A stretch of 64,000 bases of DNA, from positions 32,881 through 96,880 of the IMG/VR virus record IMGVR_UViG_3300032214_000566; one strand, 5' to 3'. Both the position numbers and the translations under genes were made by a program. How positions within the stretch are numbered: the first letter of the stretch is position 1; each line of letters opens with the position of its first letter. Source of the DNA: a virus. This document shows positions 8,971-38,968 of the stretch, in pieces. The notes under the pieces were generated by a model. The model was not told the origin of the DNA. It was given only the letters and a program-made list of their open reading frames with translations, and did no database searches.

Positions 8971-11181
8971 TTAAAAATCCAATTTAACAGGATACTGCTG
9001 AATACCTTGTCGTTTTTCAGGTGACTGTATCTTAGATACAACCATAAGCTCTTTTTCATCGTTGTAAAGAGCAACTTCCGACACATAAGGAGCTGACCCA
9101 TCCCAAGTTGGGTTAGTAGAACTTAAAAATTGAGTTTGTCCTAAATTACACAGATAATTCATTACATAGATAGTTGCTTGTATGTCAGTTTGTATCGCAC
9201 CGTAGAAATAATATTCACCCCCAAAGTTTAGTGTCACCCCACTATTTGCCGGTGTAGGTAATGTAATATAATTATTCAAATTATATATCGAAGCATTATC
9301 ATACATATCTTTAGTGATTTGTATTGTAGTACCTGTCAAACCTGTTACAGTTAATTTACCATTTAATGTTGATGCCGATAATTGTGACATAACATCAATT
9401 TCTTTCCATAGTGTTGGATTAGGTCTTGTGGTACCACTTGATACTTTTTGAACTAATACCTTCATCTCATTCGCAGTATACCCTGTAGGTATCGTTGGGT
9501 TGCCTGACACTAAGAAAGGAAACTCACTACCAAATTTTAAAAATATATTATAGGTTGGTTGCGTAGGGTCTAAAAGACTCGGTGTTAATTTAGTATAATA
9601 ATTACAGTGTAGTGAATTAGTAAACGCGCTGTTATTGAATCTATACGTCACAAAAACGGACTCAGTATTTGCACTTAACAAACCTTCGTCTTCACCCATA
9701 ACTCCGTCACACGCATTCGGTATGATTGTACCAACTTTAGGTGCCGGTAAGGTCCATGAACGATTAGATTTATAATTCAATGCCGCAATTATTTCGTCAT
9801 CATCAAATATCACCATTTTATAATCAGGGAAAACTTTACCAACTCTACTAGGGTACCCATTACCGTTAACGTGAGTATCCCATAAATTATAATATCTTAA
9901 TCCAGGATTATTAAATTTAACATCCTTTTTAGACTGTATATAATAAGGTTGGAATAAATCAACCTGTGTAAATCCACTTGGGTCTGTGTAAAAATCTTCA
10001 CCAATAGTTGCATTAGTGTTCTTGTGCCACATCAACCAAGGAATACTTAATTTAAAGTTTCTTGCCTGTCCGGTCGCACCAGGATCAGCAGAATCATATT
10101 CTTGTTGTGCAAATTTTTCTCCATAGAAATTATCAATTGCTTGGTTAGTATAATGAATAATTGCTATAGATTTTTGGTCACTCGGACTTAATACTATATT
10201 TTGGTCCATTGAATTAGTAAAATAAACCGATCCCGTATCAACTTGACCATCATTGGATTTATACCCAAAATATTCTTTTGAACCTGTATATCCTGTTGAT
10301 TTATAATAATTATAATCTAAAACTTGGTTCGAGAAGACACCCGCCGGAGACTCAGTCCAAGGAATATTCATATTCCATACTTTAACATCCGATTGGGAGA
10401 CATCACAATTTGTTTCATAATTAAATACGTTTGTTGCCCAATACAATTGTGGTGTTACCGAATCATACAATGCGGTCATACCCGAAGGGTAGAATAAAAT
10501 ATTGGAATAACCTGAATACCCCATAGACTGGAAGTTAGGTAATTGTCTATCGACTTGTATCGTCACTGTAGATGCGGTTGATGTGTTACCCGTGATACCA
10601 ACAACGACATAAGTGAACATAGGAGCATTACCACTTAAAGGAGTGATTGAATTTGTTGTGAACAGAGTCAATATCATTCCAGGTGTTACGGTTCCAGAAA
10701 CAGAAGGGTTAATTGAATTACTACTAATCACAAATGTAGTACCTGAGCTTAATCCACTATTCGCGACATTAAAATTAGGATTAATAGTGTATGATGACGA
10801 GGTATACGCACTAAAATTAAATGTGTTTGCGGTTGACCCCGTAAAAAATCCTCTTGGTGCTGCAGAATTAAAGATATTATCAACAAAAGACGCATCATAA
10901 GGAATACCATAAGTAGTTCCTGAAGTTGAGTCTAAGAATAATGGGTATTTAACATGGTGTCTATTTTTTTCAGGTACCGGTGTTAAATTCTGAGCATTGT
11001 ATTGTGGTGACAACACGTTTAATTGTGATGGAACCATATTGTTAACACAACCATAACAAACTTCACTATCACCTATCTGAAAATATGCGATATTGAATTT
11101 TCCTTGCGACATTTTTTTTCTTGCCGCATCCGTAAGTATTGTACTTATTAATGGTCCTGTTGTTTTATTTATGTATGACAT
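8971..11181 (-). CDS. Baseplate/tail-fibre attachment protein with split DUF3751-like ends
   Basis: N-terminal ILTDAARKKM...FQIGDSE and C-terminal VSEVALYNDEKELMVVSK...VKLDF resemble the two halves of the P2 gpH-type fibre-attachment domain. Confidence 0.6.
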   Translation of the reverse strand: MSYINKTTGPLISTILTDAARKKMSQGKFNIAYFQIGDSEVCYGCVNNMVPSQLNVLSPQYNAQNLTPVPEKNRHHVKYPLFLDSTSGTTYGIPYDASFVDNIFNSAAPRGFFTGSTANTFNFSAYTSSSYTINPNFNVANSGLSSGTTFVISSNSINPSVSGTVTPGMILTLFTTNSITPLSGNAPMFTYVVVGITGNTSTASTVTIQVDRQLPNFQSMGYSGYSNILFYPSGMTALYDSVTPQLYWATNVFNYETNCDVSQSDVKVWNMNIPWTESPAGVFSNQVLDYNYYKSTGYTGSKEYFGYKSNDGQVDTGSVYFTNSMDQNIVLSPSDQKSIAIIHYTNQAIDNFYGEKFAQQEYDSADPGATGQARNFKLSIPWLMWHKNTNATIGEDFYTDPSGFTQVDLFQPYYIQSKKDVKFNNPGLRYYNLWDTHVNGNGYPSRVGKVFPDYKMVIFDDDEIIAALNYKSNRSWTLPAPKVGTIIPNACDGVMGEDEGLLSANTESVFVTYRFNNSAFTNSLHCNYYTKLTPSLLDPTQPTYNIFLKFGSEFPFLVSGNPTIPTGYTANEMKVLVQKVSSGTTRPNPTLWKEIDVMSQLSASTLNGKLTVTGLTGTTIQITKDMYDNASIYNLNNYITLPTPANSGVTLNFGGEYYFYGAIQTDIQATIYVMNYLCNLGQTQFLSSTNPTWDGSAPYVSEVALYNDEKELMVVSKIQSPEKRQGIQQYPVKLDF

Positions 11182-11209
11182 AATATATAAATATCATTTT
11201 ATTGGTTTA

Positions 11210-12835
11210 TTATCCCGTTGATTGAGTTGATGATGTCGGAGCTAAAATACCCGTCTTAGTTATACTAAATGTTATTGGCGTTACATTCACATTTAACGTC
11301 TCACAAATAGTCTGATTACTCAATGTTACATTAGTAATCGAAATAGTATTATTTATCGTACCTGTTGGTGCACAACTTGTGGATCCATTAGCCACGACTA
11401 CAGTCGAAACAACAGTCCCTTTAACCGTACCGACACCAATAATTTTAGCACTATATGTTCTTGTTATCGCACTTGTAACATAATTAGAATAATTCAATGT
11501 TGCACTACATGCGGTTGTTGTTGACGCAGATGTTGTGGATAAAGTAGTACCACTAATATATGTACCCCCTCCTGTTGTTCCCGTAGAAGACGTATTAGTT
11601 GTTGTTGCTTGGACACTTCCATTACCTCTCACAACGTTAGTTATATGTGTGATATCAAACGTCAAAGTTTTTCCAACAGGTAAAGATGGGGTTACCGATA
11701 CCTCCCACACAAAAGATTTACTTAATGTGGTATTACTATTGGTAATTACGGTACCATTAGCCGGAACTAAATTTAAATTAATACTATAATTACTAACATT
11801 TGTGAGTGATTGTAAATTCACGACATTCGCAGACACATTCCCAATAATATCTTGTACATATACGGTATATAACCCTGAAGGTAAATTTGTAAAAGTGTTC
11901 GATATTTGATAAGATGCTGAGTTATTATTTAATGCGTATTCATATGGAGGTGTACCTCCAATTACGTTAGTAACCTGTATTGTACCATTTTGTGCAACAT
12001 CACAACTAGGAACATTACTAGTTATTATTGCAGATATCGAATCTTGACAATCACCTAAACTTAAAGTTACAGGTTGGTTTGAACCGGCGACTGTCCACGC
12101 ACCAATAGGTGGGCTAACAGCCGATTGTAGAACAGGAGTACCTTGGAAATTTGGGCCCCAGTTAGTTATATTCCACATAGTTGTTCCCGTATTGAAATAT
12201 ATTGTTCTACTCGGACTTGACCCCGTCCAAGACGGATACCCATTAAAAGTCGAAGCAGAATAAAACTGATATTGCCATTGGGTGTTGTTAAAGAATGTGG
12301 TTAAACACATACCTGAAACATTTAATAATTCAGGAACCGTAGGTATACACTCTATACATGTGTCGAATGGTCCTGTTACCGTAGTTGCAGTATAATTGTA
12401 ATATGTTTGTGCCGTATATAATAACACACCGTTACTTATCCAACATCCACTTTGTAAATTTAAAGAGTATATTGTATTGGCAGAAAATTGATTCTCCATA
12501 TCCGCCAAATAATACAAGAACGAACCTGGCGACGTACAACTTTCAAACTCCTCGAGATAGAAAGTAACGTTTCCAACTGTACACGTTGTTGTTCCGGTAA
12601 AATCACCATAATAATCAACCACTGTTGCGGTATAATCACCAACTTGTAGATTAGTTAAATTTTGACTATTAGATCCATTACTCCAAGATATTGAATATGG
12701 TGGAGTTCCTCCTGTTATTACTAAACTTATTCCACCGTCGTTTGTAAATGGTGTGTAAGCATCAATTACCGAACACTCAACTCCCATCGGGAATAGAGTT
12801 ATAATTTCACATGTATTACCACTGTATGCTGGCAT
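11210..12835 (-). CDS. Virion fibre/decoration protein with SprB repeats and Cys modules
   Basis: GGISLVITGGTPPYSISWSNG...NLQVGDYTATVVD and a second GGTPPYEY...LPSGLYTVYVQD unit; Thr/Ser-rich; no signal peptide. Confidence 0.7.
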   Translation of the reverse strand: MPAYSGNTCEIITLFPMGVECSVIDAYTPFTNDGGISLVITGGTPPYSISWSNGSNSQNLTNLQVGDYTATVVDYYGDFTGTTTCTVGNVTFYLEEFESCTSPGSFLYYLADMENQFSANTIYSLNLQSGCWISNGVLLYTAQTYYNYTATTVTGPFDTCIECIPTVPELLNVSGMCLTTFFNNTQWQYQFYSASTFNGYPSWTGSSPSRTIYFNTGTTMWNITNWGPNFQGTPVLQSAVSPPIGAWTVAGSNQPVTLSLGDCQDSISAIITSNVPSCDVAQNGTIQVTNVIGGTPPYEYALNNNSASYQISNTFTNLPSGLYTVYVQDIIGNVSANVVNLQSLTNVSNYSINLNLVPANGTVITNSNTTLSKSFVWEVSVTPSLPVGKTLTFDITHITNVVRGNGSVQATTTNTSSTGTTGGGTYISGTTLSTTSASTTTACSATLNYSNYVTSAITRTYSAKIIGVGTVKGTVVSTVVVANGSTSCAPTGTINNTISITNVTLSNQTICETLNVNVTPITFSITKTGILAPTSSTQSTG

Positions 12836-13070: not shown

Positions 13071-14687
13071 TTAACAGTTGCCGTTTACTCTACATAAAAG
13101 TGTTATTTCACCACTCGTATCAACTTTATATACATAACCACCGTACTTGATATAATCCTCAACTATTGGTTTTGTAAGTGATGAATCTTGGTAAATAAAG
13201 ACACCATCAACTAAAGATGTACTACTAACTGAAGTGTAGAATGTTAAATCAACCCCACCGTCTGTTAATTGACAAACAGGACAGGAAACACTAAAACCAC
13301 CTTGACCATTCCAAACATTATATGATGGTGTAGGTGTTGGGGTCGGTGTTAAGCAATTTAAACAAGTACCATATGTTGTTGCGGTAGTTGCGGTAAATAT
13401 TGGTTGGTTAGACCATCTATATTCAGGAGATGGGTAATAATTCACAAAACTACCGATATATGTATAACATCCAATAGTTTGGTCTTTTATCACATCACCC
13501 ACAACAATATTACGTGGTGGGTATTCATCTTGAATTATCATCAAATTAGAATCACAAGCAGTAAATACAAATTGAGTATTAGGAGAATAAAATACTGTTG
13601 GTGTTGGTGTTGGACTTGTGGTTGGTGTTGGTGTTGGACTTGAAGTAGGTGAAGGTGTTGGTGTTGGTGTAATACAAACATTACATCCTGAATACACCTG
13701 AACAACTGAATTTAAATATCCACTAGCACTTCCTGTACTCTCACTTATATATGTCACACATTTTGGTAAATTATCTATCACCGCTTGGAATGTTGTTCCT
13801 GTATTTAAAGGAGTGGTTCCACTTATTATTGGTCCTCCAACATAGTAAAAACTTCCATCATTACAATCCTGTAAAACTTTAATTGTTGGGCAATTAAAAT
13901 TACCACTTTCAATCACAAACGTCACGGTCTCACCAGTAATTGAGTACCCATAAGCAGGTGTCGGTGTAGGGGTAGGACTTGGGGTTGGTGTTGGTGTAGT
14001 ATAGGCACTAAAGGTAATCGTTGCGGTAAATACGCAAGGGGTTGGAGTTGGTGATGGGGTAGGAGTCGGAGTTGGTGTTGAAGTTGGTGTAGGGGTAGGG
14101 GTTGGAGTATCAAAATTACAATCCAAAATAACATCGAAATCCAAACTACTACATGGATCAGGTGTCGGGGATGGTGTTATACAACTACCCGTATATTGTA
14201 TGGTTTCACTTAAATCGGGACAATATGAACTAGTTGGTTCTGAACCGAAAAAATAACAAGTTCCTGTCAATGAACTACTTAAACACCATTTAATATTATT
14301 ATAGAATATGTATCCACTAGTTGTTCCTGTCCAATATGGGTATCCATTATGTTCTCCAGCAACCACATAGTTACCACTATACCCACTGTAAGCATCATTA
14401 TTAATATCAACACAAATTTGATTACTACATGACGATCCGGTAAATGACAAACAAGTACTCGTATTACAATCTGCCTGTAACGTATAAACCCCACTAAGTG
14501 AAATAAATTGTATTGGTGTAAATCCTGTGGTATAAGCGGAAACTATTTCATAACATCCGTCAGGAACAACTGAGTCACCTGAGAATGAGAATACAGACCC
14601 AACCGATGAGGTGTATGCCCAACTAGCACCTGTATAGGTATATTGGTAAGCGGGGTAATTACAACCTTCAAATAATATATTTGCCAT
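13071..14687 (-). CDS. Cys-rich modular virion protein with (Thr-Pro)n linkers
   Basis: About 26 Cys in 538 aa; several TPTPTP tracts separating small domains. Confidence 0.7.
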   Translation of the reverse strand: MANILFEGCNYPAYQYTYTGASWAYTSSVGSVFSFSGDSVVPDGCYEIVSAYTTGFTPIQFISLSGVYTLQADCNTSTCLSFTGSSCSNQICVDINNDAYSGYSGNYVVAGEHNGYPYWTGTTSGYIFYNNIKWCLSSSLTGTCYFFGSEPTSSYCPDLSETIQYTGSCITPSPTPDPCSSLDFDVILDCNFDTPTPTPTPTSTPTPTPTPSPTPTPCVFTATITFSAYTTPTPTPSPTPTPTPAYGYSITGETVTFVIESGNFNCPTIKVLQDCNDGSFYYVGGPIISGTTPLNTGTTFQAVIDNLPKCVTYISESTGSASGYLNSVVQVYSGCNVCITPTPTPSPTSSPTPTPTTSPTPTPTVFYSPNTQFVFTACDSNLMIIQDEYPPRNIVVGDVIKDQTIGCYTYIGSFVNYYPSPEYRWSNQPIFTATTATTYGTCLNCLTPTPTPTPSYNVWNGQGGFSVSCPVCQLTDGGVDLTFYTSVSSTSLVDGVFIYQDSSLTKPIVEDYIKYGGYVYKVDTSGEITLLCRVNGNC

Positions 14688-14742: not shown

Positions 14743-15540
14743 TCATAAGAATAACTCAATATATTCTCTCCACTCACACTTTATTAAATTATATAACTCA
14801 GGTTGTTTAGTATATGTAAAATCAAACATCTTTTCATCGCTACCAACATAACCATTTGAAATGGCGTCAAGTGTTACATTTTTGAATGTTTCACATACTT
14901 CTATGACCCTATGTTTTGGTACGAATAATGACCCTCCTTGTATGAATCTTGTTTGTGACAATGCGTGGAATTCCGCATCCTCGAATCTTACGTAATCGTG
15001 ATGAGAGAAAAACGTAACTTTATCATTGTCTAACGAATTAATCTTATCTAAATTTGGCCATTTTACATTTTTTTTAGGGTGGTCATCTCTAATCACACCT
15101 GCATCCGCCCAAACATATAAATCAGCATCAAATAACCCCTTTTTAAATGAATCCAAAATATAAAATAACTTACTAAACATCACAACATTATATAATGGTT
15201 TAATCATTTCTGGTACGTCAAAATGTATTTTCTTTTTAAATTCATCACTAGACATTAATTTATCCAATGGTTCAAAAAATGTTTTATACCCCTCTATTTC
15301 TTCTAATGGTTGTACAATCATAATCGTCTTTTCTAAATTGGGGTCAACCTCTTTTCTGAATTCTAAAATTTGTTCTTTAAATTTTTCTTCTGTATAGATT
15401 ATTAGATTAGTATCTAAAAATAGAATACTCCTCATCCACCAAATATATGTGTGGTATGACATCGTGTAATTGTCCCATTTATCTCTACCTATATCAAATA
15501 GTGCTGTTACTATTGCTGTTTTTTTTATATCCATTCCCAA
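14743..15540 (-). CDS. HtrL/YibB (WlaTC-like) family putative glycosyltransferase
   Basis: TAIVTALFDIGR, YNVVMFSK, YVWADAG, FIQGG and VGSDE motifs typical of HtrL_YibB. Confidence 0.72.
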   Translation of the reverse strand: MGMDIKKTAIVTALFDIGRDKWDNYTMSYHTYIWWMRSILFLDTNLIIYTEEKFKEQILEFRKEVDPNLEKTIMIVQPLEEIEGYKTFFEPLDKLMSSDEFKKKIHFDVPEMIKPLYNVVMFSKLFYILDSFKKGLFDADLYVWADAGVIRDDHPKKNVKWPNLDKINSLDNDKVTFFSHHDYVRFEDAEFHALSQTRFIQGGSLFVPKHRVIEVCETFKNVTLDAISNGYVGSDEKMFDFTYTKQPELYNLIKCEWREYIELFL

Positions 15541-16271
15541 TTTATTTTCATATGTTTATGTTGTATATCCACTTGATTAACGTCGAATAAATCTGAAGTA
15601 TTATCAGATTTAATTAACGTATTAAGTTTAAATCCGTACTTATTTAACATTGTCGGCACAAAACCCTCAGAGTAACCATGTAACCCTTGTTCGTGTATCT
15701 CTAATAGTTTTTTCATCGCTTTATTTGAAAATCTATTAGTTGGGAAAAATGAACCGAATTTTTCATTTACATCTTCAGGTAATAAATCCCCATCACCAGG
15801 AAATCTTTCAAACCACATATGTTGTGATGTTGTTCTATTATCCAATTTTGGTATATTTTCTTGGGAAATAACATTTTCATTTTTAAAAATAAAGTACCCT
15901 AAGAAATCCGAGTCGTCCTTATCGGTACCTTCAAAAAATAAATTCCAATCTTTCATTTTCACATCATCATCAAAAAACCAATAGTAATCGTAATTTGGGT
16001 GGTCAATATAAAAATTTAACATCCTAAGGTGAGCATAAAACCATATAATATTTCTATTCCCGTAAGAGTTCCAATAATGTTTTTTACTAACATCACCATA
16101 AAATTTTAATCTATCTCTTAATTCTTTTTCGGTATATGTAAAACCAAGATTAAATGTCGAATCTTTACTGATATCCGAAATCCAAGTTATTTCTTTTGGG
16201 AAGTTTCTCCAATGGTTTGCATACGCAGGGTACACATCAGGTGTTGTACAAACACAATAAACACTATTCAT
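15525..16271 (-). CDS. GT-A fold glycosyltransferase-like protein
   Basis: HPNYDYYWFFDDDV (DxD after a hydrophobic strand), RFSNKA, SEGFVPT. Confidence 0.62.
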   Translation of the reverse strand: MNSVYCVCTTPDVYPAYANHWRNFPKEITWISDISKDSTFNLGFTYTEKELRDRLKFYGDVSKKHYWNSYGNRNIIWFYAHLRMLNFYIDHPNYDYYWFFDDDVKMKDWNLFFEGTDKDDSDFLGYFIFKNENVISQENIPKLDNRTTSQHMWFERFPGDGDLLPEDVNEKFGSFFPTNRFSNKAMKKLLEIHEQGLHGYSEGFVPTMLNKYGFKLNTLIKSDNTSDLFDVNQVDIQHKHMKINWEWI

Positions 16272-17082
16272 ATTCTTTTGTTATAATTTCATTCCATTCA
16301 GGGATTCTATTGAATTGGTGAACAATATCATAAACTTCTCCCTTATGATTGTAAAGTTTATTATCTTTAAGATAGGGTATACCCCCGTATCTATTTGTTA
16401 ATGTATTTTTAAATCCCCATGATTCAAAAAATTGTGTCGGTCCCCCAACTGCACAATGTAATGTCCAACCCTCATCAAAAGAGAAAATTTTCAATCTATC
16501 AATCTCATTTTTTGCAATCATTATTATCAAAGCAGCTTGGTCTTTTATGTTGTGGGAGTTATTACTATTCTCACACATATCATTTAATTTAGTATACACC
16601 TTTATTAAAGATTCTTTTCTACCACCAATAACTCCTGAACATATAATGTCATGAGTTCTACAAATTTCTAAATCTTCAGGAAAAACTTTAGCAATTACAT
16701 CACCATTCCATGGTTCTTCATTTATTCTTAATCCTTCAGACCCGACAAATACATCATACTCATCTTCCATTTTAATAAACGGGTCCGATTGGAACGCAAC
16801 ATCAAATACGTCAGTTACCATAAATAAATCGTAATCTGATTCTGTAATAAAATCTAATGTGTGTTTAAGTCTTTTGTTATTAATATACCACGTATCTTCA
16901 ACCGTTACCGGAATTGGTATTATACCCAATTCGTGACATATTTGTATTTCATCGTCATTAGTATTGGCACAAAGTAAAACAACGTCCCCATTAGTGTGTT
17001 TTTTAAAACTATGTGACCACACTTTAATTTTATTTATATTCTTACTTATATTGTTAGATAACCCAACTAAAACTTTTTTCAT
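16264..17082 (-). CDS. GT-A fold glycosyltransferase-like protein
   Basis: MVTDVFDVAFQSDPF, ICSGVIGG, DQAAL and IVHQFNR motifs as seen in viral glycosyltransferases. Confidence 0.68.
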   Translation of the reverse strand: MKKVLVGLSNNISKNINKIKVWSHSFKKHTNGDVVLLCANTNDDEIQICHELGIIPIPVTVEDTWYINNKRLKHTLDFITESDYDLFMVTDVFDVAFQSDPFIKMEDEYDVFVGSEGLRINEEPWNGDVIAKVFPEDLEICRTHDIICSGVIGGRKESLIKVYTKLNDMCENSNNSHNIKDQAALIIMIAKNEIDRLKIFSFDEGWTLHCAVGGPTQFFESWGFKNTLTNRYGGIPYLKDNKLYNHKGEVYDIVHQFNRIPEWNEIITKEYE

Positions 17083-17085
17083 ATT

Positions 17086-17658
17086 TTAACAATTATAAAG
17101 AGTTATCTCCATTTCCTCATTGAATCCGAAAATACTTGGCCATAAGTACTCTATCATCCAGTTATTGTGTGAAACAATTTCTGTGGTGGTTATCGTACTT
17201 TGTAGTTTTTCGTAAAATTCTTTAGGATTTTTAAGTATTAATTCTTTAGCTAATATTGATTGTGTACCTGCAATAAATTTTATAGGCATCGTAATTTCAA
17301 TATTATTCGCCTTAGCGTATTCAATAGATTGGTTAATAATATCGTCACCATCTCTTACATATGTAATACCCAAAGGATAATATTTTAACTGACTATTAAA
17401 ATTATTTACCTTATCTAAAAATGAAGGACAATGGTCAAAGGGGTTATCTTGAGTGAAACAAACAAAATCAGGTAGGTTATCATAATTTCTTATTATATAA
17501 TCAAAATAAACAATAGCATCATAACCAACATTAGGAAAATTCAATTCGAACTTATCGTTGTTTTTAGGGTTTTTATTATATACAATGTATGGGTAATTTA
17601 AATTTTTAGTCCATTCCAAATCTTCTTGGAAATGACAAATAACAACAACTAAATTCAT
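17086..17658 (-). CDS. DUF3431 family protein (putative glycosyltransferase-related)
   Basis: VVICHFQEDLEW, YNK, PNVG, YIIRNYDNLPD...FTQDNPFDH. Confidence 0.72.
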   Translation of the reverse strand: MNLVVVICHFQEDLEWTKNLNYPYIVYNKNPKNNDKFELNFPNVGYDAIVYFDYIIRNYDNLPDFVCFTQDNPFDHCPSFLDKVNNFNSQLKYYPLGITYVRDGDDIINQSIEYAKANNIEITMPIKFIAGTQSILAKELILKNPKEFYEKLQSTITTTEIVSHNNWMIEYLWPSIFGFNEEMEITLYNC

Positions 17659-18953: not shown

Positions 18954-20192
18954 CTATATGAATGCGGTTGTCACACTGCCAGGACTTTGTGTAGTGTACC
19001 CATAAGCTCTAGGGGTTGTTTGTAATAAAGTTATCGCATAAGGAGAAGTTTCATTAATTCGATATAAATTACCATTACTATCCATAATATGTATCTTATT
19101 TTCGTAACCAACAATACCAATAGGTGTCGTCACTGAAGCTGAAATGTCAATTTCAAAATCTAATGTTGAACTTGCAGAATACACATATTGTTGTATATAA
19201 CTTCCATCACCGTTACTACCTAACACTATAAAGTCACCTGTAGTTGATAATGCTATATCGTATATCAATGGGTTACCGGAAAACGCACCTGCCAATGAGG
19301 TTATTTTAGTATATGTGGCAGCACTTGACCCGATACCTACTTCAAATATCTGAGTTTCACCATCTCCCGAAACATAAAGACTGGCAATCAATCTTCCATC
19401 ATTAAATGCCTCTAATCCTTGTCTACTATTATATGTTTGATAATTAGAAATTGCTCTATTATATGTTGCAACAACAGGTGATAATGTCAGATCCCATTCA
19501 TCTATTGCCCCGTCAGGCGGGTTAATCCAAAACTTATCGGAGGTATTCGCAATAGACCCCACTTGAGTAAATCCTGATAATGTTATAGGTCCGGTTTCAG
19601 TATTGGTTCCAACATCATATACGTAATAGTCATCAACATCAAAATCCTTAGCAATTACAAATTTAGGGTCGGTTGTTGGTGTAGGTGTTGGCGTTGGACT
19701 AGTTGTTGGTGTAGGAGTTGGTGTTTTTGTTGGGGTTGGAGTAGGACTTGTTGTTGGTGTAGGAGTTGGTGGGATAGGTGTTGATGTTGGGGTCGGAGTA
19801 GGGCTCGTTGTTGGTGTAGGCGTTGGTGGAATAGGCGTTGGTGTTGGGGTAGACGTAGGGCTAACTGTTGGCGTTGGTGTAGGACTAACTGTTGGCGTTG
19901 GTGTAGGGCTGATAGTCGGGCTTGGGGTCGGTGTAGGTGTAGGGCTGATGGTCGGTGTTGGTGTCGGGGCAGGAATACAAATTTGATTTTGCGTAAAAAT
20001 ACATCCATTTGTGTCGACCAATTTTAAACCAACATAATAATAGTTAGGGAAAAAATAATCAGTATCCACCACAACTGTAGGTGGTATTTGACAACTACCT
20101 GATATTAAAAAGCAAGACGTATATCCAGTATCACATAAAAATACATCATATGGACTTGTTCCACTTGTTACACCAGTTATTTGTATTATCAT
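18954..20192 (-). CDS. Fibre/spike protein: Cys N-domain, ~100 aa Thr-Pro stalk, probable beta-propeller head
   Basis: Three-part architecture visible in the translation. Confidence 0.7.
19671..19973 (-). repeat. Coding low-complexity (Thr-Pro)n / SPTPTPT repeat
   Basis: About 100 aa made almost entirely of T, P and S. Confidence 0.9.
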
Positions 20193-29864: not shown

Positions 29865-30947
29865 TTAAGCAGTGTTAATTTTATAATATCCGTAACCATA
29901 TTTAACAAGGTCACCTATATTATCCACTTCATTAAGTCTTTGTAAAGGCTCAAAAGCCGAATACTGACCTCTTTCAACAACAATATCCGATTGTACTTCA
30001 GGATCCATTACAAAATCCAACAAATATTCATTTTTAGTCAATGCTGAAACCACAATATCATTATCTGTAATTCCTGAAGACCCAACAACATAATATGTTT
30101 TCCCGTCATTGGTGTCAAAGTACTCAATGTTATTAATAGTATACGCAGTATATTCATTTGTAATTTGACTAACATAACCTATAGAACCATTTGATAGTGA
30201 CATGATATAACCGACTGTGAATGGTTGTGGTCCCCATCTTCTTAATAATTCTAATTGTGAATTAGTATATCCAGAAACAGGGAATGGGATAGTTGTATAT
30301 GTACTTGATATCTGTGATTGTACATTATTTTCAGAGTCACCTGTAAAGATAAAATCTAAACTTAATTGTGTCCCTGACCAACTACCTCCTTGTGGTGTGA
30401 AAGTTATCCCACCTAATGGGTTGGTTATTGTTATACCTGTAAATGGTACTGAAACCGGTTTTTGGACCGTAGTTGTACCCCAAATATTTGTTTGTGATAA
30501 AGTTATTGTATAATTTTCAGGGTTAGACGCATAGATATGACTTTGGATTGTATTACCTAAAGTTAAACTAGGTCCTGTAGATCCGTCACCCCAATTAATT
30601 ACGTATTCAGATTGTTGTAAATAATTTTGGAAATTGTAACTGGCAGTATTATAGACATATACTTTATATTGGTTAATCGGGTCTCCTGATATTACGAAGT
30701 TAGTTACAACATCTATTTGGTCAATATACCCATCAAATGTAGAATAATAACCAATATCATTAATGTTTTGTGTAAACATAATAGGTATCGTTAATCCCGT
30801 TAATAACGAACCCCCATTTGTACCACCGCTAAGGACGTAACTTAATCCTGAATAAACATCAAACGTATTTGTTTGGTATGTCTCTAAGAACAAGTCGTCA
30901 TTTAAAACTTCCGGTGAAATTACTATATTTATTTTTTCAGGTGTCAT
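29865..30947 (-). CDS. Putative virion protein with a PKD-like domain
   Basis: YVINWGDGS...HIYA...YTITL pattern. Confidence 0.6.
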   Translation of the reverse strand: MTPEKINIVISPEVLNDDLFLETYQTNTFDVYSGLSYVLSGGTNGGSLLTGLTIPIMFTQNINDIGYYSTFDGYIDQIDVVTNFVISGDPINQYKVYVYNTASYNFQNYLQQSEYVINWGDGSTGPSLTLGNTIQSHIYASNPENYTITLSQTNIWGTTTVQKPVSVPFTGITITNPLGGITFTPQGGSWSGTQLSLDFIFTGDSENNVQSQISSTYTTIPFPVSGYTNSQLELLRRWGPQPFTVGYIMSLSNGSIGYVSQITNEYTAYTINNIEYFDTNDGKTYYVVGSSGITDNDIVVSALTKNEYLLDFVMDPEVQSDIVVERGQYSAFEPLQRLNEVDNIGDLVKYGYGYYKINTA

Positions 30948-31852
30948 TAAGGATTAACATATTCGTACCATTTTATCGGGGAATTAACAGTTCCCACTCT
31001 TGTAAGATTACCCACTTGAGGTTCATAAAAAACCTCATACTCAAAGGTCCCATAATTTAACTTATATTTGTAATAGAATGTTTTTTGTTTGTCTACGTTA
31101 AATCTTGATGCACCTGTAAAATTAGATTGGGGGACATTCATTAATCTAACAAATTGTCCTTTTTTAGCATTAAAGAATTTAGCACTAACATAGAACTCAT
31201 CAATATTAAGGTAACTTTTATCTTTTAAGAAATAGATAAAAAACCCTTCTTTATCAGCACCAGCATAATCCAATTTAAATTTAGGTTTTTTAACCATCAC
31301 ATTTATTGGGAAGTTAACACTGCCAATAGTCCCCGGTTCTTTTAATCCTTGTTGTGTTGGTAATATAACCGTTAAAAGTATTTTTTGACTTTCGGATTGA
31401 TTCGTGTCGTAAAAATCTAACTTAAAAAAACTACCTTTAAATGAGTTTGCAAAATAATATATTTCTGAATCAGTAAAAGACGCATTTTCATAATCAATCG
31501 CCCAATTACTTAATGTTGCACCACTAATTGGTGATAAGTAATCAAAGAAATTGAATTCATAGTTTATGTCAGTAACCTTAGTTGTGGTTGTCGTAATAAT
31601 ATTACCCACTGTCGGTGGTCCAGAAAAGCTAGGTATTATTATTTGAGTCGTACCTGTAGTTAAGTAATTCCACTCGGCATGTGCAAATTTTGTACTTTCA
31701 AAATCTTGTGGTGGGTTAATAATTTGTTCTAAAACCTCACTCTCATATAACTCAATACTCTGAGTCCTACCCTCAAAATCGAAATCAATTTCTAACGGTA
31801 TATTAAGAAACCCATCCTCAGTTTTTACTATCCCTAAAAATTTATCATTCAC
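30947..31852 (-). CDS. Putative virion structural protein
   Basis: 301 aa, translationally coupled within the structural operon. Confidence 0.6.
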   Translation of the reverse strand: MNDKFLGIVKTEDGFLNIPLEIDFDFEGRTQSIELYESEVLEQIINPPQDFESTKFAHAEWNYLTTGTTQIIIPSFSGPPTVGNIITTTTTKVTDINYEFNFFDYLSPISGATLSNWAIDYENASFTDSEIYYFANSFKGSFFKLDFYDTNQSESQKILLTVILPTQQGLKEPGTIGSVNFPINVMVKKPKFKLDYAGADKEGFFIYFLKDKSYLNIDEFYVSAKFFNAKKGQFVRLMNVPQSNFTGASRFNVDKQKTFYYKYKLNYGTFEYEVFYEPQVGNLTRVGTVNSPIKWYEYVNP

Positions 31853-33557
31853 AATTATCAGTAATTGGGTCGTTTATTATTGTTGTTTCAACATTACTTA
31901 CATTACGTTTCATAGGGTATTGTATAAACACAATCTCTTTAAAAGGATAATGAGCATCATTAATAAATGGTATGTTAAGTCCTAAATTATTACTATCTAT
32001 ATAACCATAACTATATATGTCTCTCCAAATAAACGTCTGTGTGTTGTTAGAAAAATAAGAATAAAATGGGGCTTGGTCGATTTCGGTTAACCTAGCAGAC
32101 TCTATGTAATCACTATAAACCCTAATAGGAATAGAATAATGTGGTTTATAAGCGTATCCAGAAGGTAAGTTAGTATTACCCGAAGTTTGCACATCTAAAA
32201 ATAATATAGGATTAATTGAATACTTGTGGAATAATGGAGACAAAACGTATTCTTTTTGTTCGATATCATTGTATTCGCAAAAATCACCTTTTATGATGTC
32301 ACCGACATTTAATTCTTTGTTATAATAAAAATTGTTGTTTTGTTCAGAATAAACCCCATACGGTATATTATCTTTATTATTTGTTGATTGTTTATTCCAC
32401 CAATTATCAATAGTATTTTTTAAGAAGTTAAATTCCCACCCGATTTCTAAAGCACTTGATTGGTTAGGGTTTGGTTTATTAAACCAACCCATGTAACCTT
32501 TATTAACTATGGTAAAAAATAATTCACTAATAGGTTTACCATTATTATCTATTAAATTTTGGATGTTAATATCTTTATTCACTGAAAATCCATATGATTG
32601 TGTTCCCGTCTTAACGGAAACTCTTTGTACTTGATTGGGGGTAATTGCTGAAAACTCCAATTTTCTTTTTACAGGGAACGGGTTATTTTCAAAACCTAAT
32701 TTAGTAACGAAAGTCTCGTCGTCATTAGTAAGTATTTTATGTAACCTAACATAATATCTTGATTTAGTTTCAGCACTATTAGTGATATTAATAATTCTTT
32801 TGAAGTTACCATACCTTCCATCATAAACATCATTACTACTGAAAAGTAAATTAAAGATGGTAAATACTTTCTCCTCTGAACGATAGTCACCATCACCCAA
32901 AGTAAAAACTTGGAATCGGTATTTGTTATTAATACTTGTGGTTAACTCGACCCATTGACCAACTTGTAGATTATGATTAGTCGCACAATAAAAATATACA
33001 ACCGATTTACCATTTGTTGTTCCGGTACCCATAACAAATGGTATACCACTGGCAACATTAAAAGACTGGTTGGTTACGTTAAATTTTTCACTTTTATATG
33101 ACATCGTTTGGGCTGTCGTACTACTATAAGCATATGATGTATAAAAAGACCAATTATATGTTGATGCACTTTTTGGTTTAAAATCTACGTGCCCCGTTAT
33201 ACCGCTAGTTCTTATTAAACTAAATTCGTCATACTGAGGAAATCCAGACCAAACATTAGTATTTATTGATATTTCCGGATTTAAATAATATAAACTATTT
33301 TTAAATGGGGTGTAATTTGTTTTACCTGATATCGCATTATTAAATATATTAACTATTTTACCATTTAATCTAAATGTGTTTGATGCTTGTCTTTCACTAT
33401 CAAAAACATTATTTAAACTAACGATAGATGACCTATCACCTTGTACCAAACTCCTTTGTTGTCCGAATAAGGGTAACTGAATTTGTTCATCAACTGTTGT
33501 AGATGCCGCATATCTTTTGGACCCTAAAACTATTCTTATCTCATCCTGTTTTCTCAT
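31845..33557 (-). CDS. Putative virion structural protein
   Basis: 570 aa, Asn/Tyr/Thr-rich, within the structural operon. Confidence 0.6.
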   Translation of the reverse strand: MRKQDEIRIVLGSKRYAASTTVDEQIQLPLFGQQRSLVQGDRSSIVSLNNVFDSERQASNTFRLNGKIVNIFNNAISGKTNYTPFKNSLYYLNPEISINTNVWSGFPQYDEFSLIRTSGITGHVDFKPKSASTYNWSFYTSYAYSSTTAQTMSYKSEKFNVTNQSFNVASGIPFVMGTGTTNGKSVVYFYCATNHNLQVGQWVELTTSINNKYRFQVFTLGDGDYRSEEKVFTIFNLLFSSNDVYDGRYGNFKRIINITNSAETKSRYYVRLHKILTNDDETFVTKLGFENNPFPVKRKLEFSAITPNQVQRVSVKTGTQSYGFSVNKDINIQNLIDNNGKPISELFFTIVNKGYMGWFNKPNPNQSSALEIGWEFNFLKNTIDNWWNKQSTNNKDNIPYGVYSEQNNNFYYNKELNVGDIIKGDFCEYNDIEQKEYVLSPLFHKYSINPILFLDVQTSGNTNLPSGYAYKPHYSIPIRVYSDYIESARLTEIDQAPFYSYFSNNTQTFIWRDIYSYGYIDSNNLGLNIPFINDAHYPFKEIVFIQYPMKRNVSNVETTIINDPITDNCE

Positions 33558-33559: not shown

Positions 33560-36500
33560 TTAAGAAATAATATATTTGGTTATGTATCTATTAAGTGCAG
33601 TTTTACCTTTACCTAACCCAAAGTAAAAATGGTAAGGTGCCCCAACAACAAACCTATCACTTGTTTGATTATTAGATGGTGCGAAAGTAGGTATACCTGT
33701 ATTTGTATAGTTATAAATATACCCCTTTTGTGGTCCATTTGTTGCTTGAAAATAATCAGTATTTGAAAAAGCCATTTGTTGGTATGGGACAGAATAATAT
33801 TTATTATTTGAATCATAAGTCGTCCACCAATCGTTATCTTGACTACCTAATATTGTTTGAGGTATGTTATTACTATCTTTTTTCCACTTATACATCGGAA
33901 CTACTTGTGTTTTTGGGTATCCAACTGTTTGTGTTGTGGTACCAAATGTTATAGTTCCTGGTGTTAACATTATTCGATTTTCAGTTATGGCGGAAAATAA
34001 AGCACCTATCAATGGTCCGTCATTGGTGTTTGGCGCCAAATAGATATCATTATCGTCATAGAACTCATCAGTGAATGGTAAAACACCATATTCAGAATTA
34101 ATGCTAAACATTTGTGCAACATCACCATCAATCCTATCTTGAGTACGACTAAATAAACTATTTATGGACGCATCCCCACTACCCGCAAGTTGTTGACCGA
34201 AGGACGTAGATAATAGTCTAGATAATAAAAAGAATAATAATATATCGCTTGTCTCATTATAACTTGTACTTTTCATCGTATCCACCAAATAACCCTCCAA
34301 TTGTGGGTTAAGACATATTTCTTTCGCAAATTGGTCTCTAGGTCCTAAATCCATAATAGTGGTTGGGAAGTATAGATTTTTATCGTTCATTCCTCCGTAA
34401 TCAGCATCAACCCATTGGTTGTTCAATGGATTTCTTTTTCTTGGTTTTTGCCCAACGAATCCACCAATAGTGGCATCATAAGGTGTCGACCTATAAAAGA
34501 ATGAAAATCTACTCTTATCATAATATATTGGCCCCTGGTTTGTTGTGATTGGAACTAAAAGCCCATCATTAGCTCCACAGAATTTATATTTTTTAACATT
34601 ACCAACCGCATCATAAACCGTCTTTTTTCTAAATGAAAATGCATATAACGTACCATTAACCCAATTGTTTTGGAAAACGTGACTTATAATACCTCTACAG
34701 GCACCAAATGAAAATCTAAATCTAGCCTTCCATTCAACAAAATATTTAATATCGTCAGGTATAGTTTTTATTAATTCATCCTGAACAAAATAATAACACC
34801 CACCTCTAACTCTTTGTTTTTGTATGTTACCTGTAAAATTCTCAGGACATGGGTCATCAACACCAAAAGTCTCACCACTACCCGAATAACAGGACAACAA
34901 AGTCATATTTTCACATGCTAAACTTCCAAGTACCGCATCACTAACACCTGTACCACTATCTTGCAAATCTTGCAGATTATTTGTTTGGTCTGTGGGTTGT
35001 AAAGCAACAACAGGTAAATCAATTATATCACCAGTCTCAGTTAACTTATACATTAAAAAATTATCATTTAAATGTAGAGAATACGATGTATTACCGGAAA
35101 CTTCTGTAATATCCGAAGTCGGTAACCTATCAGATCTTAATAAAAGTCTTGTAGATGAGTTCATCGTAATATTAGGTAAGGTATCTAAATGATATGCTGG
35201 TGAAAAAACTCGACTTAATCTCGATGCCGCTTGTAAAGGCATGTAAGTCCCTTGTACTTCAGCACCCGCAAAAAATGTACCACCCTCGATGTTACCTTGG
35301 GGTGATGTTTGGCATGCCGGTTGAGTTCCACCTCCACCGACACCTTGCCAAGTTCCCTGACAGACTTCTAAATCAATTACAACACCACTACTATCTATTT
35401 GTGCCGCAATAGCAACTAACCAAGTTGGGGCCCCTGTTTGTGGATTCACCGCTTGGTATTGTATAACTCTCCACGTATATGTGTTCGTAATCGGATTAAT
35501 AGTACCAACTACAGGTATAGTACAAGCAACATTCGTATATAAAACTTGTCCAGTTTGAATACTCGCAACTGTTGTAAAGAAACTAGGTCCACCTGTCGAT
35601 ATGTTTTCACAAGCACCAACATTACCATTAGCACAAGGTATACCCGCAGGAACATTCTGACAAGTACCAACACTATAATTACCCATGACCGATTGACCTT
35701 CAGCATTATTTCTAAACGCCCAAGTCGAATTACTCGCCAACCATTGATATGTTGTGGTTCCAGGGTTAGCCGCGTTAACTATTGAGCTCCCATATTGAAA
35801 TCCTATAGTACTTTTACCTAACTGAGGACCATTACATGCAATGTCGCTATAAACACCAGCAGGTGATGTGTAAGCCTGTAACGTACTAACATCCCCTGGA
35901 AATGCGGTGTAAGTTGATCTAGATTTATCTGTGGAATTATAATATTTAGCAACGTTATTTGTAAATGCGGTAAAGGACCCAGCACCTAATGTAAATGAAA
36001 ACGGTTGATAATATGGGGCATTTTGTGAGTTTAAAACACTGTGTGTTTGTGGAGTTACATATCCTGACCTCCAAGTTAAGTTGTTAATGGCACTATTAGC
36101 AGTTGGCTGTATTGGTATATTTAAATGGTAACTTCCCTCCACTATAGGTCCCTGATTAAATCCATAACCAAAAAGCATGGATAGGTCATATTTTATATTT
36201 TGTCTCTCAGTATATGGGTCAACACCTCGAGTTAAGAATATAATTTCTTGATTTTGGTAGTTATCATAAAAACTAAATGGTTTTTTGTACCAAGCGGTTT
36301 GTCCAGGAGGGACAGGTATTGGTTCGTTGTATCTAACTCTTTGTGATTTATTATATAAATACTTATTTAATAATCCGTTAGGGTTATTAAAGTTAGTTAA
36401 TCCTGAAAATTGGTAAGCGGTCCCACCAGTAATTACTTGGAAATATTCATTACCTGCCGGAAAATCATAAGTTTTCGTCCCACCAGTAATTCTTAATTTT

Positions 36501-38968
36501 AAAGTTGCGGTCGCACTTGTTCCTCCCGTAGTTATATAAGTCACCGTCTTAGTGATTAGTGATGTTTGATTTGGGTTAGTGTTACCGGTTATTTTTTTAT
36601 TATTAAACTGATTTAATGTTCCACCTGTTAAATTAGGGTCATTTATATTTGCTATATTATGGAATGAAACTAAATCACCAGCATTTAATAACTGTAAAGT
36701 GCCGGCATCACACACTATCATCAATATAGAATCAGTAAAACTATTCGATGGTTGTGGAATATTAGACCCCGGAGGTGAGTTATTAACTGTCGTTTTAATA
36801 ATATTTTCATTATCAAAATATCTTTTTCTGAAATTAGCCATGTTCAATGATTGGGATAACGTAACATCATCACCTAAATATTTAAATCCTCCACCTTGTG
36901 CAGGCACCTCAACGATAGGTAACTTACTCATTTTAGGATCCAAATCAATAAACCCAGCGGCTGCCGCCCCCGAAACATACTGATACCCCGCCAATCCTTG
37001 TCTAAGTCCATTATTCTCACCTTCAGTCGTATTACCACTAAATGTTGTTACATTACTATATTCACTTAATGAGTTTGAATTTATTAATTGTCCAAAATTA
37101 CCATTAGAAATTAAAAGGGTATCAAATGGGTTGAATTGTACATTATTAACCATATTAACATCTTCACAATTACAAGCCTCACAATCAGGATAAGATATCA
37201 TTGGTAGTGATATTCTTTTAAATGGGTTGTTTTCAGTTAAAGGTGTTAATGATTCTTTATTACAATTAACGTCACCTCCTAACGCCTTTACGACTTTACA
37301 AATAGTATAAACAACACCATTAATAAAGGCAATTATCTTATTAATAAATCTAACAACAATAGGGTACAGATATGCTAATATGTGTAAAACAATAATAACA
37401 ATAATGAAGACAGGCGATAAAACAGTTATTAGTAAATTAAATAAGAAAAATATAAAATCAAAATTTCTAACCCCGTCATTCACCGGAAATCTATTAGTCG
37501 TTGTAGAACATTCCCTATTTGTAATTTCTTTTATTCCTAAATGTCTTGCTCTGTTATACCCCCACTTCCATCTGTCTATATGTGAAGCAACTGTATAAAC
37601 TCTATTAAAATTAAATTCAAAAAATTTATCTTCACAGTTAATCGCCTCTTGGACCATTTGGTATCCTAATTGTGTAAATCCGGTGAAGTTAGCGTTTTGT
37701 ACATATTCTCCATAATCTTTCCAATCTAAACTAAACGCATATGATTTTTGTTGTAAATCGGGACTATATGGTCCGTTAATACTCGAACTATTCCAACCAT
37801 ATTCTTTAATGTTAGGGACTAGATAATCTGCCCTCATTATACTATTTTCATTACCATCTTCATTTTGGTATTGAATTCTAAATCTATACTTACCTTTTGT
37901 TGGTATTCCTATTGTCGGGTCATTTGATATTATCTCTTCTCCAAATTCATTAGTTGATATATAATCCAAATTCATGGGTACCTCAACTAACCAAGTACCA
38001 TCATCATCTATAATCTTACCTCCCTGTTCAAACTTAAATTCCTCTATGATTGGGAATCCTTCACTGTCATTAAAAATCGTTTGTCTTAAAGCCAAAACAG
38101 TTCCCGCCGCGGAAACTAAATCACATAAATTTCCAGAATCAAATTTAGGTTTACAATTAACACTTAATGGGTCGTCTTCACTTGTTGAGAACATAGACCC
38201 CATAAAAATAGCTTGTGGTTGTATTTCAACACCTATATCTCTAAGGTCAAAATCAACTCTAGTGATACCGACATTACAAATATCAGTTTCACCCCAAAAG
38301 GATGCAACTTCCACATCTTTAGCCTGATTAACAATTTGTGGTAATGAATCTAAATTTTCAGATGATTTAAAATTAGAACCAGCAAATTGTGAATCAACAC
38401 CTAAACCTTGTCTAACCAAATCCGATGGTCTTTGGGAAAAGCATCCGATGTTAGATAAGTCCATATCCATAACAACACTTTGTATCCCCAAAGGAACCCC
38501 CACTATCATGAAGTCACCGCTATCATTAGTTCTTACCGTGTACTTATAGTATTTTTCATATACCTCAAGTACCTCCATTCTGGTTAATAAATCATTAACA
38601 TCAGGAAACGTACCTGTTGGGGTGTGTCCTTGGTTTTCTTGTACATATGGTAATAGATTATATCTATAACCATCTTCATTCTTATCGGTTAACGTTTTAT
38701 ATGGATATAATGTCGATATTACAGGATCTAACGAATCCTCAGTGGTTAATGGTACGAATACTGATATGGGTACATTTGGCACACCAAATCCACCATTCGC
38801 AATAACTCTTCCTGCAACTACTCCGTAGTCCGCACAGAAACGAGTATAAACATCTTCTTGTTTAAGTTTTAGTGATAGGATTTCTATTAGGTCAAAATCT
38901 TGTTCGACATTGATTCTAATATTTTTATCTATCCCTGGTGTTGTTCTTATTCTATAACTTTTGGTCAT
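33560..38968 (-). CDS. Giant baseplate-associated protein (1802 aa) with an internal hydrophobic segment
   Basis: Follows the gp6-like gene; N-terminal GVVAGRVIANGGFGVPNVPISVF...TNDSGDFMIVGVPLG (prealbumin/CarboxypepD-like fold); internal transmembrane-like stretch. Confidence 0.65.
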   Translation of the reverse strand: MTKSYRIRTTPGIDKNIRINVEQDFDLIEILSLKLKQEDVYTRFCADYGVVAGRVIANGGFGVPNVPISVFVPLTTEDSLDPVISTLYPYKTLTDKNEDGYRYNLLPYVQENQGHTPTGTFPDVNDLLTRMEVLEVYEKYYKYTVRTNDSGDFMIVGVPLGIQSVVMDMDLSNIGCFSQRPSDLVRQGLGVDSQFAGSNFKSSENLDSLPQIVNQAKDVEVASFWGETDICNVGITRVDFDLRDIGVEIQPQAIFMGSMFSTSEDDPLSVNCKPKFDSGNLCDLVSAAGTVLALRQTIFNDSEGFPIIEEFKFEQGGKIIDDDGTWLVEVPMNLDYISTNEFGEEIISNDPTIGIPTKGKYRFRIQYQNEDGNENSIMRADYLVPNIKEYGWNSSSINGPYSPDLQQKSYAFSLDWKDYGEYVQNANFTGFTQLGYQMVQEAINCEDKFFEFNFNRVYTVASHIDRWKWGYNRARHLGIKEITNRECSTTTNRFPVNDGVRNFDFIFFLFNLLITVLSPVFIIVIIVLHILAYLYPIVVRFINKIIAFINGVVYTICKVVKALGGDVNCNKESLTPLTENNPFKRISLPMISYPDCEACNCEDVNMVNNVQFNPFDTLLISNGNFGQLINSNSLSEYSNVTTFSGNTTEGENNGLRQGLAGYQYVSGAAAAGFIDLDPKMSKLPIVEVPAQGGGFKYLGDDVTLSQSLNMANFRKRYFDNENIIKTTVNNSPPGSNIPQPSNSFTDSILMIVCDAGTLQLLNAGDLVSFHNIANINDPNLTGGTLNQFNNKKITGNTNPNQTSLITKTVTYITTGGTSATATLKLRITGGTKTYDFPAGNEYFQVITGGTAYQFSGLTNFNNPNGLLNKYLYNKSQRVRYNEPIPVPPGQTAWYKKPFSFYDNYQNQEIIFLTRGVDPYTERQNIKYDLSMLFGYGFNQGPIVEGSYHLNIPIQPTANSAINNLTWRSGYVTPQTHSVLNSQNAPYYQPFSFTLGAGSFTAFTNNVAKYYNSTDKSRSTYTAFPGDVSTLQAYTSPAGVYSDIACNGPQLGKSTIGFQYGSSIVNAANPGTTTYQWLASNSTWAFRNNAEGQSVMGNYSVGTCQNVPAGIPCANGNVGACENISTGGPSFFTTVASIQTGQVLYTNVACTIPVVGTINPITNTYTWRVIQYQAVNPQTGAPTWLVAIAAQIDSSGVVIDLEVCQGTWQGVGGGGTQPACQTSPQGNIEGGTFFAGAEVQGTYMPLQAASRLSRVFSPAYHLDTLPNITMNSSTRLLLRSDRLPTSDITEVSGNTSYSLHLNDNFLMYKLTETGDIIDLPVVALQPTDQTNNLQDLQDSGTGVSDAVLGSLACENMTLLSCYSGSGETFGVDDPCPENFTGNIQKQRVRGGCYYFVQDELIKTIPDDIKYFVEWKARFRFSFGACRGIISHVFQNNWVNGTLYAFSFRKKTVYDAVGNVKKYKFCGANDGLLVPITTNQGPIYYDKSRFSFFYRSTPYDATIGGFVGQKPRKRNPLNNQWVDADYGGMNDKNLYFPTTIMDLGPRDQFAKEICLNPQLEGYLVDTMKSTSYNETSDILLFFLLSRLLSTSFGQQLAGSGDASINSLFSRTQDRIDGDVAQMFSINSEYGVLPFTDEFYDDNDIYLAPNTNDGPLIGALFSAITENRIMLTPGTITFGTTTQTVGYPKTQVVPMYKWKKDSNNIPQTILGSQDNDWWTTYDSNNKYYSVPYQQMAFSNTDYFQATNGPQKGYIYNYTNTGIPTFAPSNNQTSDRFVVGAPYHFYFGLGKGKTALNRYITKYIIS

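Follow-up and report, generated by a model that had tools for sequence, protein, structure and literature searches.

An ordered tetrapeptide enriched in peripheral virion proteins of uncultured jumbo phages and its possible role as a modification site

Why should a pattern of only four residues recur over and over in virion proteins that are otherwise unrelated? This question is raised by a 64,000-nucleotide stretch of viral DNA (positions 32,881 to 96,880 of IMG/VR record IMGVR_UViG_3300032214_000566; hereafter the window), taken from a contig of 96.9 kb that covers about 33% of a jumbo phage genome. The block at 8971-38968 of the window, placed downstream of gp25-like and gp6-like baseplate wedge genes, encodes large serine/threonine-rich (S/T-rich) proteins, namely two SprB-repeat proteins, a collagen-like tail fibre and several without family match, and is split at 14743-18908 by a five-gene glycosyltransferase-like cassette. 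The S/T-rich proteins are sprinkled with the tetrapeptide [S/T]-[G/A]-x-[T/S]. The original prediction took this motif for a short selected linear signal and, most simply, for the acceptor site (sequon) of the neighbouring glycosyltransferases. Our analysis supports the first part, a protein-level short linear signal under selection, through positional turnover, switching between lineages and order specificity, whereas the second part is not supported, given relatives that keep the motif without the cassette (G027-G031) and phage XacN1, which has a homologue of one cassette gene without motif enrichment.

The motif excess and its controls

Motif copies were counted as overlapping occurrences of [ST][GA].[ST], and the expectation was the mean of 1000 composition shuffles. 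With the collagen run of the tail fibre masked, the block holds 148 copies against 45.6 expected (3.25-fold, z 16), so that it stands above its shuffles in the contig-wide comparison that had been proposed as a check. Among the 83 open reading frames (ORFs) of the contig, sustained enrichment (at least 8 copies with z >3) is confined to proteins of this block; outside it a few short ORFs reach z 2-5, each on 2 copies. The strongest carrier, a 736-amino-acid (aa) protein (8971..11181) belonging to a large uncharacterised phage family, has 20 copies against 3.3 expected (z 9.4). Counts made earlier by hand for the 736-, 360-, 889- and 570-aa proteins hold on exact recount (20, 10, 26 and 8, respectively), and so does the estimate of about five for the 2128-aa hub protein. 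This hub and a 2036-aa protein (50751..63556), of similar S/T content to the carriers, serve as internal negative controls with 5 copies against 5.1 expected and 4 against 5.6. So do the gp6-like wedge, gp25-like and NrdA proteins (39042..43859). Of the two among these that had been said to be free of the motif, NrdA is (0 against 1.7 expected), whereas the gp6-like wedge has 1 copy against 1.8; the gp25-like protein has 0.

Is the excess a matter of residue content or of residue order? Five other orders of the same residue classes reach 0.87-1.46-fold in the block, and therefore local richness in S, T and G does not explain it. Resolved into subpatterns, the enrichment is 4.8-fold for TGxT, 4.2-fold for SGxT, 2.3-fold for SGxS and 1.3-fold for TGxS, which makes T/S-G-x-T the motif core. 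Neither D (1.0-fold) nor N (0.59-fold) is enriched in place of the hydroxyl residue at position 1, N/D at position 4 is depleted to 0.34-fold, proline almost never occupies x (1/144), and an aromatic or aliphatic residue is preferred at position -1. In an unbiased scan of 8000 patterns of the form 'a b x c', TGxT, SAxT and SGxT come directly below patterns of threonine-proline (TP) linkers. No other ordered pattern in the block comes near these (TP)n linkers in strength (TPxP, 51 against 4.0; PTP, 57 against 4.0), and for a mucin-type GT60 enzyme they would be a more conventional candidate acceptor than the tetrapeptide.

Codon use at motif positions equals the background and positions 1-2 are encoded by 49 different hexamers, so the signal lies at the protein level and is not a DNA motif. 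An all-against-all BLAST of the block proteins gave matches limited to the SprB repeats and one 23-residue N-terminal match, which means that, SprB repeats aside, the carriers are not paralogues of one another. Several trivial sources could thus be excluded: composition, local low complexity and an artefact of order by the shuffles and permuted orders, hindsight in the choice of motif by the 8000-pattern scan, a DNA-level motif by codon and hexamer usage, and hidden paralogy by the BLAST comparison. The motif excess in the block is real, order-specific and protein-level in origin.

The collagen-like tail fibre (917 aa, 20199..22952) has 49 copies against 14.9 expected, 27 of them within residues 49-163, a collagen run of G-[ST]-[ST], and the other 22 elsewhere. 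That this segment amounts to the motif concatenated, as had been remarked, is formally true yet trivial, and it does not extend to collagen runs in general, since the motif is strongly under-represented (36 copies against 132) in a collagen-like protein of 2919 aa from a relative. This protein (L242:1308-10067, G005 181308-190067) matches PF01391 at 4.5e-280 and consists of 39% S/T. The motif is lineage-specific and is not a general property of fibres. It stands at or below expectation in T4 gp34/gp35/gp37, the DLP_6 fibre, the tail proteins of Flavobacterium phage 11b and pT24, in a 3105-aa SprB-repeat protein of Saprospiraceae (22 against 28.8 expected), and in the whole genome of XacN1 (264 against 271). 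In the 889-aa protein (23241..25910; 26 copies against 6.8 expected), two phage SprB repeats carry the motif at Gly positions where, by eye, two bacterial repeats have no flanking S/T.

Conservation, turnover and switching among relatives

Hundreds of relatives are present in IMG/VR, and the motif is spread over a very large set of uncultured jumbo phages with genomes of roughly 290-380 kb. How does the motif behave across them? In clade A, the clade of the window, homologues of the 736-aa protein hold 9-23 copies down to 46% identity, at about 20 conserved sites that exchange S and T at position 1 and have a near-invariant Thr at position 4. Homologues of the 360-aa protein retain 8-13 copies down to 55% identity. 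Between close relatives the hydroxyl is retained at a rate of 0.88 at position 1 and 0.83 at position 4, against 0.69 for other S/T residues (p=0.013), which indicates purifying selection on the hydroxyls at motif positions.

The enrichment is not limited to the proteins of the window. About 20 BLAST-independent clusters of S/T-rich proteins in the relatives' loci are enriched 2-6.5-fold, with permuted controls near 1. The clade A genome G005 (99% complete) shows enrichment in its fibre block and tail sheath, in a 282-aa repeat protein and in a few proteins without annotation, and the remaining ORFs outside 53-85 kb have 215 copies against 269. The G005 tail sheath (1069 aa, L238:8780-11989) has a large non-core N-terminal part, and 15 of its 16 copies lie at residues 124-678, outside the conserved core (748-1066). 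The 282-aa protein (L241:9964-10812, G005 169964-170812) is a mucin-like linker of seven tandem (T/P)PTGTTP units with the motif in every repeat. Clade C also has motif-rich 736-aa homologues with neighbours enriched about 3-fold; in its genome G027 (362.5 kb), 221 copies against 86 expected (109 for permuted controls) fall in proteins whose S/T content is 16% or more, and 122 against 118 in all other proteins.

The family of the 736-aa protein comprises 816 representative clusters, of which 89 full-length representatives were compared. Motif number ranges among them from 0 to 27. The 17 motif-poor members (2 copies or fewer) together have about 18 copies against 23 expected, which is chance level, and they are nested among rich ones at many places of the tree, including the sister group of the window's clade, with at least nine changes between the rich and the poor state. 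In motif-free members the same loops are N/D/K-rich and keep the central hydrophobic residue. The sites themselves turn over: taken over all members, the motif falls on 221 alignment columns, of which only 4 have it in 20 sequences or more, and members about 30% identical to the 736-aa protein of the window have up to 27 copies, with 1-7 of its 20 sites in common. The fold does not need the motif. Since copy number varies from 0 to 27 within one fold, with turnover and switching, the motif is not imposed by the fold, as the original prediction had anticipated when it stated that the motif recurs in unrelated folds and is no structural repeat.

Motif density also seems to be set genome-wide and not protein by protein. 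In one lineage, represented by IMG/VR fragments (L319 and L264, 22-41% complete), the whole fibre neighbourhood is low in S/T (10-15%) and has few copies, 18 against 8.5 over 14 proteins. Low density is not explained by a shift in GC, which is 0.31 in such lineages and 0.28-0.33 in the others. A density that is kept through positional turnover, and that is switched on and off as a block, is what would be predicted for a linear tag needing a trans-acting factor, and is unlike a fold-determined pattern.

What might read or write the motif

As the fold can dispense with it, the motif is most likely a tag that is read or written by a trans-acting factor. The role that we propose is the following. 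The pattern hydrophobic-[S/T]-[G/A]-x(not Pro)-[T>S] would be kept dense on loops and linkers exposed at the baseplate periphery, the fibres and the outer sheath; phage-encoded glycosyltransferases would O-glycosylate its Thr/Ser hydroxyls while the proteins are in the cytoplasm, prior to assembly of the virion or in its course, and the result would be a sugar coat on the tail periphery. Exposed sites, their modification, the enzyme and the sugar are thus what we infer. The writer would not necessarily be the adjacent GT60-like/HtrL cassette, and in many relatives it could not be. Better candidates may be two genes of glycosyltransferase family 2 (GT2) that are conserved between the window's clade and the cassette-free clade C, where they are reciprocal best hits at 43-46% identity and match Pfam Glyco_tranf_2_5 and Glycos_transf_2; in G005 the pair lies at 129270-130733 and 142564-143373. 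We regard these two genes as leads. The exclusion of Pro at x, the preference for Thr at position 4 and the failure of D/N to substitute at position 1 are rules of the kind found in sequons. That the motif is an O-glycosylation site for some conserved phage enzyme, with GT2 as the best guess, is the reading we prefer, at somewhat less than an even chance. More tentatively, a defined sequon hydrophobic-[S/T]-[G/A]-x-T might be used by a conserved phage glycosyltransferase (possibly the GT2 pair of clades A and C), coating loops across hundreds to thousands of jumbo phages, and lineages that lost the enzyme might have shed all sites.

Is there evidence that the sites are exposed? In a model of the 736-aa protein (predicted local distance difference test, pLDDT, 67), motif positions lie in coil at 15-17 of the 20 sites, and 12 of the 20 motif Gly are within 3 residues of a strand end, against a background of about 0.3, that is, twice as often. 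The motif is also found in Pro/Thr linkers. These data give hints that the sites may be exposed on loops and linkers. The model has no fold match in PDB and BFVD except one uncharacterised homologue, the protein has no Pfam, PHROG or fold match, and a protein atlas search returned only unnamed viral clusters. For the 360-aa protein (29865..30947; 10 copies against 1.6 expected), the model is too poor for site mapping (pLDDT 42.7). Its only confidently modelled part, residues ~84-170, is a beta sandwich around an invariant W-G-D-G without Pfam match; the W-G-D-G is reminiscent of the PKD-domain motif.

Several observations weigh against glycosylation by a conserved phage enzyme. The exposure argument is based on one model of medium confidence, and the hydrophobic residue at -1 (often also at x) and the strand-end position fit a structural loop idiom as well. 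GT2 genes number 2-6 in every genome checked; as all genomes examined have them, nothing can be told from their presence, and enzymes of this family usually make polysaccharides. The clade B homologue of the 736-aa protein is rich in the motif and its S/T-rich neighbours often are not, which would be odd for a general sequon. As to the cassette, no gene of it co-varies with the presence of the motif, so that the proposed check, whether enrichment tracks glycosyltransferase genes across relatives, fails for these neighbouring genes. Five 100%-complete clade C genomes (G027-G031) keep the enrichment of about 3-fold with no homologue of PF11397, HtrL, DUF3431, the 248-aa or the 272-aa protein, the DUF3431 and 248-aa searches having been made in clade C without a positive control and BLAST having found both in other loci. 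XacN1, finally, has a 46%-identical GT60-like gene and no enrichment.

Could the motif be a loop idiom that nothing reads? A hydroxyl-Gly-x-Thr turn or bulge might be favoured in exposed, beta-rich virion proteins for capping, hydration or low stickiness and remain unmodified. This explanation is possible and the most probable of the alternatives, although less probable than glycosylation. The position of the motif in coil beside strands agrees with it, as do the hydrophobic -1 residue, the often conserved aromatic or aliphatic x that is retained even in motif-free homologues, the absence of a writer gene that co-varies, and the restriction of the motif to some proteins in clade B. ST-turns, Asx-turns and G1 beta-bulges likewise place a hydroxyl residue and then Gly at strand ends. 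However, such turns are universal and accept Asp/Asn, whereas the phage motif is confined to a lineage, does not admit D/N, requires a Thr three positions further along and can be missing without loss of the fold. Some homologues with this fold lack it entirely, with the repeated switches and the kept count over changing positions described above; it shows no excess in the other phage fibres tested or in the one bacterial SprB-repeat protein, it occurs in strandless Pro/Thr linker repeats, and GC content is equal in low- and high-density lineages.

A second alternative, which we consider improbable, is that the motif docks a protein partner (a decoration protein, a fibre chaperone or an assembly factor) or forms weak glycan-binding loops that stick the tail to host polysaccharide. 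The genetics would be the same as for a sequon, with density selection, turnover and on/off switching, and the motif is limited to peripheral virion proteins; but no candidate partner emerged, and a four-residue motif at 20 scattered loops per protein would be unusual for protein docking.

More improbable still is the version of the original prediction, in which the motif is the acceptor sequon of the adjacent cassette, with the GT60-like homologue of polypeptide GlcNAc-transferases initiating and HtrL, DUF3431 and the others extending. The cassette consists of an HtrL_YibB-like gene (14743-15540; match 3.9e-27), genes for a 248-aa (15525-16271) and a 272-aa protein (16264-17082), a DUF3431 gene (17086-17658) and a gene for a 417-aa GT60-like protein (17655-18908). 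The last of these matches PF11397 at 1.6e-68 (232.2 bits, cut-off 21) and phrog_24687 at 3.9e-165, and has no solved relative by sequence. Besides PF11397 and HtrL_YibB, the cassette has one weak PHROG glycosyltransferase match. Its five proteins have no hydrophobic segment and no motif copies, and are predicted to be phage-encoded soluble glycosyltransferases.

Members of GT60 (PF11397) are polypeptide alpha-GlcNAc transferases such as Dictyostelium Gnt1/GntB and Trypanosoma cruzi pp-alpha-GlcNAcT, which glycosylate Thr/Ser/Hyp of proteins, one of them in the cytoplasm. The phage protein resembles them through its strong family match; unlike the motif [ST]Gx[ST], their known acceptors are Thr-rich mucin repeats or the hydroxyproline of Skp1, and the phage gene does not track the motif. 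In favour of the cassette are also its location inside the fibre block, the presence of PF11397 in 6/6 clade A and B records that are at least 90% complete (8/9 at 65% or more) and its behaviour in records G001 and G002, where the relocated GT60-like gene again abuts new motif-rich S/T-rich proteins (23 against 9.2, 18 against 3.9 and 16 against 2.6). Moreover, virions of XacN1 contain glycoproteins that stain with periodic acid-Schiff (PAS) (PMC5852040). On the other side, the motif of G027-G031 without the cassette means that the latter is not necessary, and the XacN1 homologue without motif that, judging from this phage, it is not sufficient. BLAST found no cassette homologue in G027, four of the five genes are absent from G005, and the clade B cassette forms an operon of its own, co-oriented and distant from the motif-rich proteins. 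The clade B operons L231:9579-13818 and L228:9376-11908 have homologues of GT60, the 272-aa protein, the 248-aa protein and HtrL in one case and two tandem GT60 copies in the other. In the window's clade the cassette lies inside the fibre block and is often down to GT60 with or without HtrL. The cassette is mobile within this phage group. Clade C largely refutes it as the writer, and only a non-homologous enzyme of the same specificity there could rescue the idea.

Finally, it is exceedingly improbable that the motif arose by chance, from composition or low-complexity S/T/G loops, through paralogy that escaped notice or from a signal in the DNA: S and T make up 16-29% of the carriers and the motif was chosen once the data had been inspected, but it stands at z=16 against shuffles with permuted orders near 1, tops an unbiased scan, has neither BLAST paralogy nor codon bias behind it, is at 1-fold in S/T-rich controls of the same genome and recurs in hundreds of relatives.

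If the motif is an O-glycosylation site, which known systems would it resemble? In mycobacteriophages, modification has reportedly been demonstrated on S/T-rich C-terminal extensions of capsid and tail-tube subunits. As in the jumbo phages, glycosyltransferase genes for cytoplasmic enzymes lie there beside structural genes and exposed Ser/Thr are the presumed acceptors; unlike them, the jumbo phages would have as acceptor a defined tetrapeptide in loops of fibre, baseplate and sheath proteins, and it does not co-vary with the adjacent glycosyltransferases. As related in PMC10877033, phage glycosyltransferases modify mycobacteriophage capsids and tail tubes (Freeman 2023). The N-x-S/T sequons that form glycan shields on viral envelope proteins have in common with our motif an ordered pattern with Pro excluded at x and a hydroxyl last, a count kept over turnover of positions, and a location on exposed parts. 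They are N-linked, however, and depend on the host endoplasmic reticulum in eukaryotic viruses, whereas the phage motif would need an O-linked acceptor. Within the presumed host phylum, the Bacteroidota, D-[S/T]-[A/I/L/V/M/T] is a three-residue O-glycosylation sequon. The phage motif does differ from it, as had been noted, and D-[ST]-[AILVMT] is not enriched in the block (25 against 32.3); in addition, the bacterial modification is periplasmic, whereas virions assemble in the cytoplasm. In the heptosylation of the autotransporters AIDA-I/TibA, an enzyme of the BAHT family recognises a structural motif of strand, short loop and strand. Like the proposed phage system, this involves many Ser acceptors in short inter-strand loops of a surface protein and a cytoplasmic enzyme, but with one repetitive beta-helix substrate and a dedicated BAHT-family enzyme, the like of which was neither searched for nor found in the phage.

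A modification site of this kind would give a rule by which glycosylated phage proteins could be picked out of metagenomes straight from their sequences, and the natural on and off lineages would be a ready set for identification of the enzyme. It would imply that phage tails widely bear a sugar coat, with possible effects on host recognition, protease resistance and non-specific sticking; this would be the first glycan coat directed by a sequon to be described in bacteriophages. If the motif is not modified, a four-residue pattern whose density is selected across dozens of unrelated virion proteins, and which is gained and lost repeatedly as a block, would still be unusual. In either case, gene neighbourhood is misleading here because the adjacent cassette is dispensable for the motif.

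Gene layout of the window

All genes across the window are on the minus strand. Upstream of the block, within 5961-8964, are genes for a RuvC-like resolvase (8359-8964), a DUF1573-like 151-aa protein and a DnaG-type primase (6815-7735), and the onset of the motif-rich block at 8971 is abrupt. The 736-aa protein is followed in the coordinates by a 541-aa SprB-repeat protein (11210..12835; 15 copies against 5.7 expected) and a 538-aa S/T-rich protein with TP linkers (13071..14687; 13 against 4.2). Beyond the cassette (14743..18908) lie a 412-aa S/T-rich protein (18954..20192), whose 6 copies against 3.6 are not significant alone, the collagen-like fibre, a 92-aa protein (22961..23239; 3 against 0.2) and the 889-aa SprB-repeat protein. 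Proteins of 996 aa (25931..28921; 8 against 3.2), 301 aa (30947..31852; 3 against 0.7) and 570 aa (31845..33557; 8 against 1.3) come next, with the 360-aa protein between the first two, and the block ends with a 1802-aa baseplate-proximal protein (33560..38968; 14 against 5.8). Residues 781-858 of the latter carry the copies ITGNT, TTGGT, ITGGT, ITGGT and SGLT at a spacing of 8-20 residues, and look like a short beta-solenoid-like repeat.

The SprB repeats (PF13573) of the 541- and 889-aa proteins score above the gathering cut-off of 28 (44.1 and 71.5 bits), as does the collagen repeat (PF01391) of the 917-aa protein (55.3 bits, cut-off 27.2). The gene for NrdA, the large subunit of class I ribonucleotide reductase (41433-43859), is flanked directly by the baseplate wedge genes on one side and by more structural genes on the other. 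Among isolates, those nearest to it are phages of Cellulophaga and Tenacibaculum; this and the SprB repeats, of which the contig has eight, support a Bacteroidota host.

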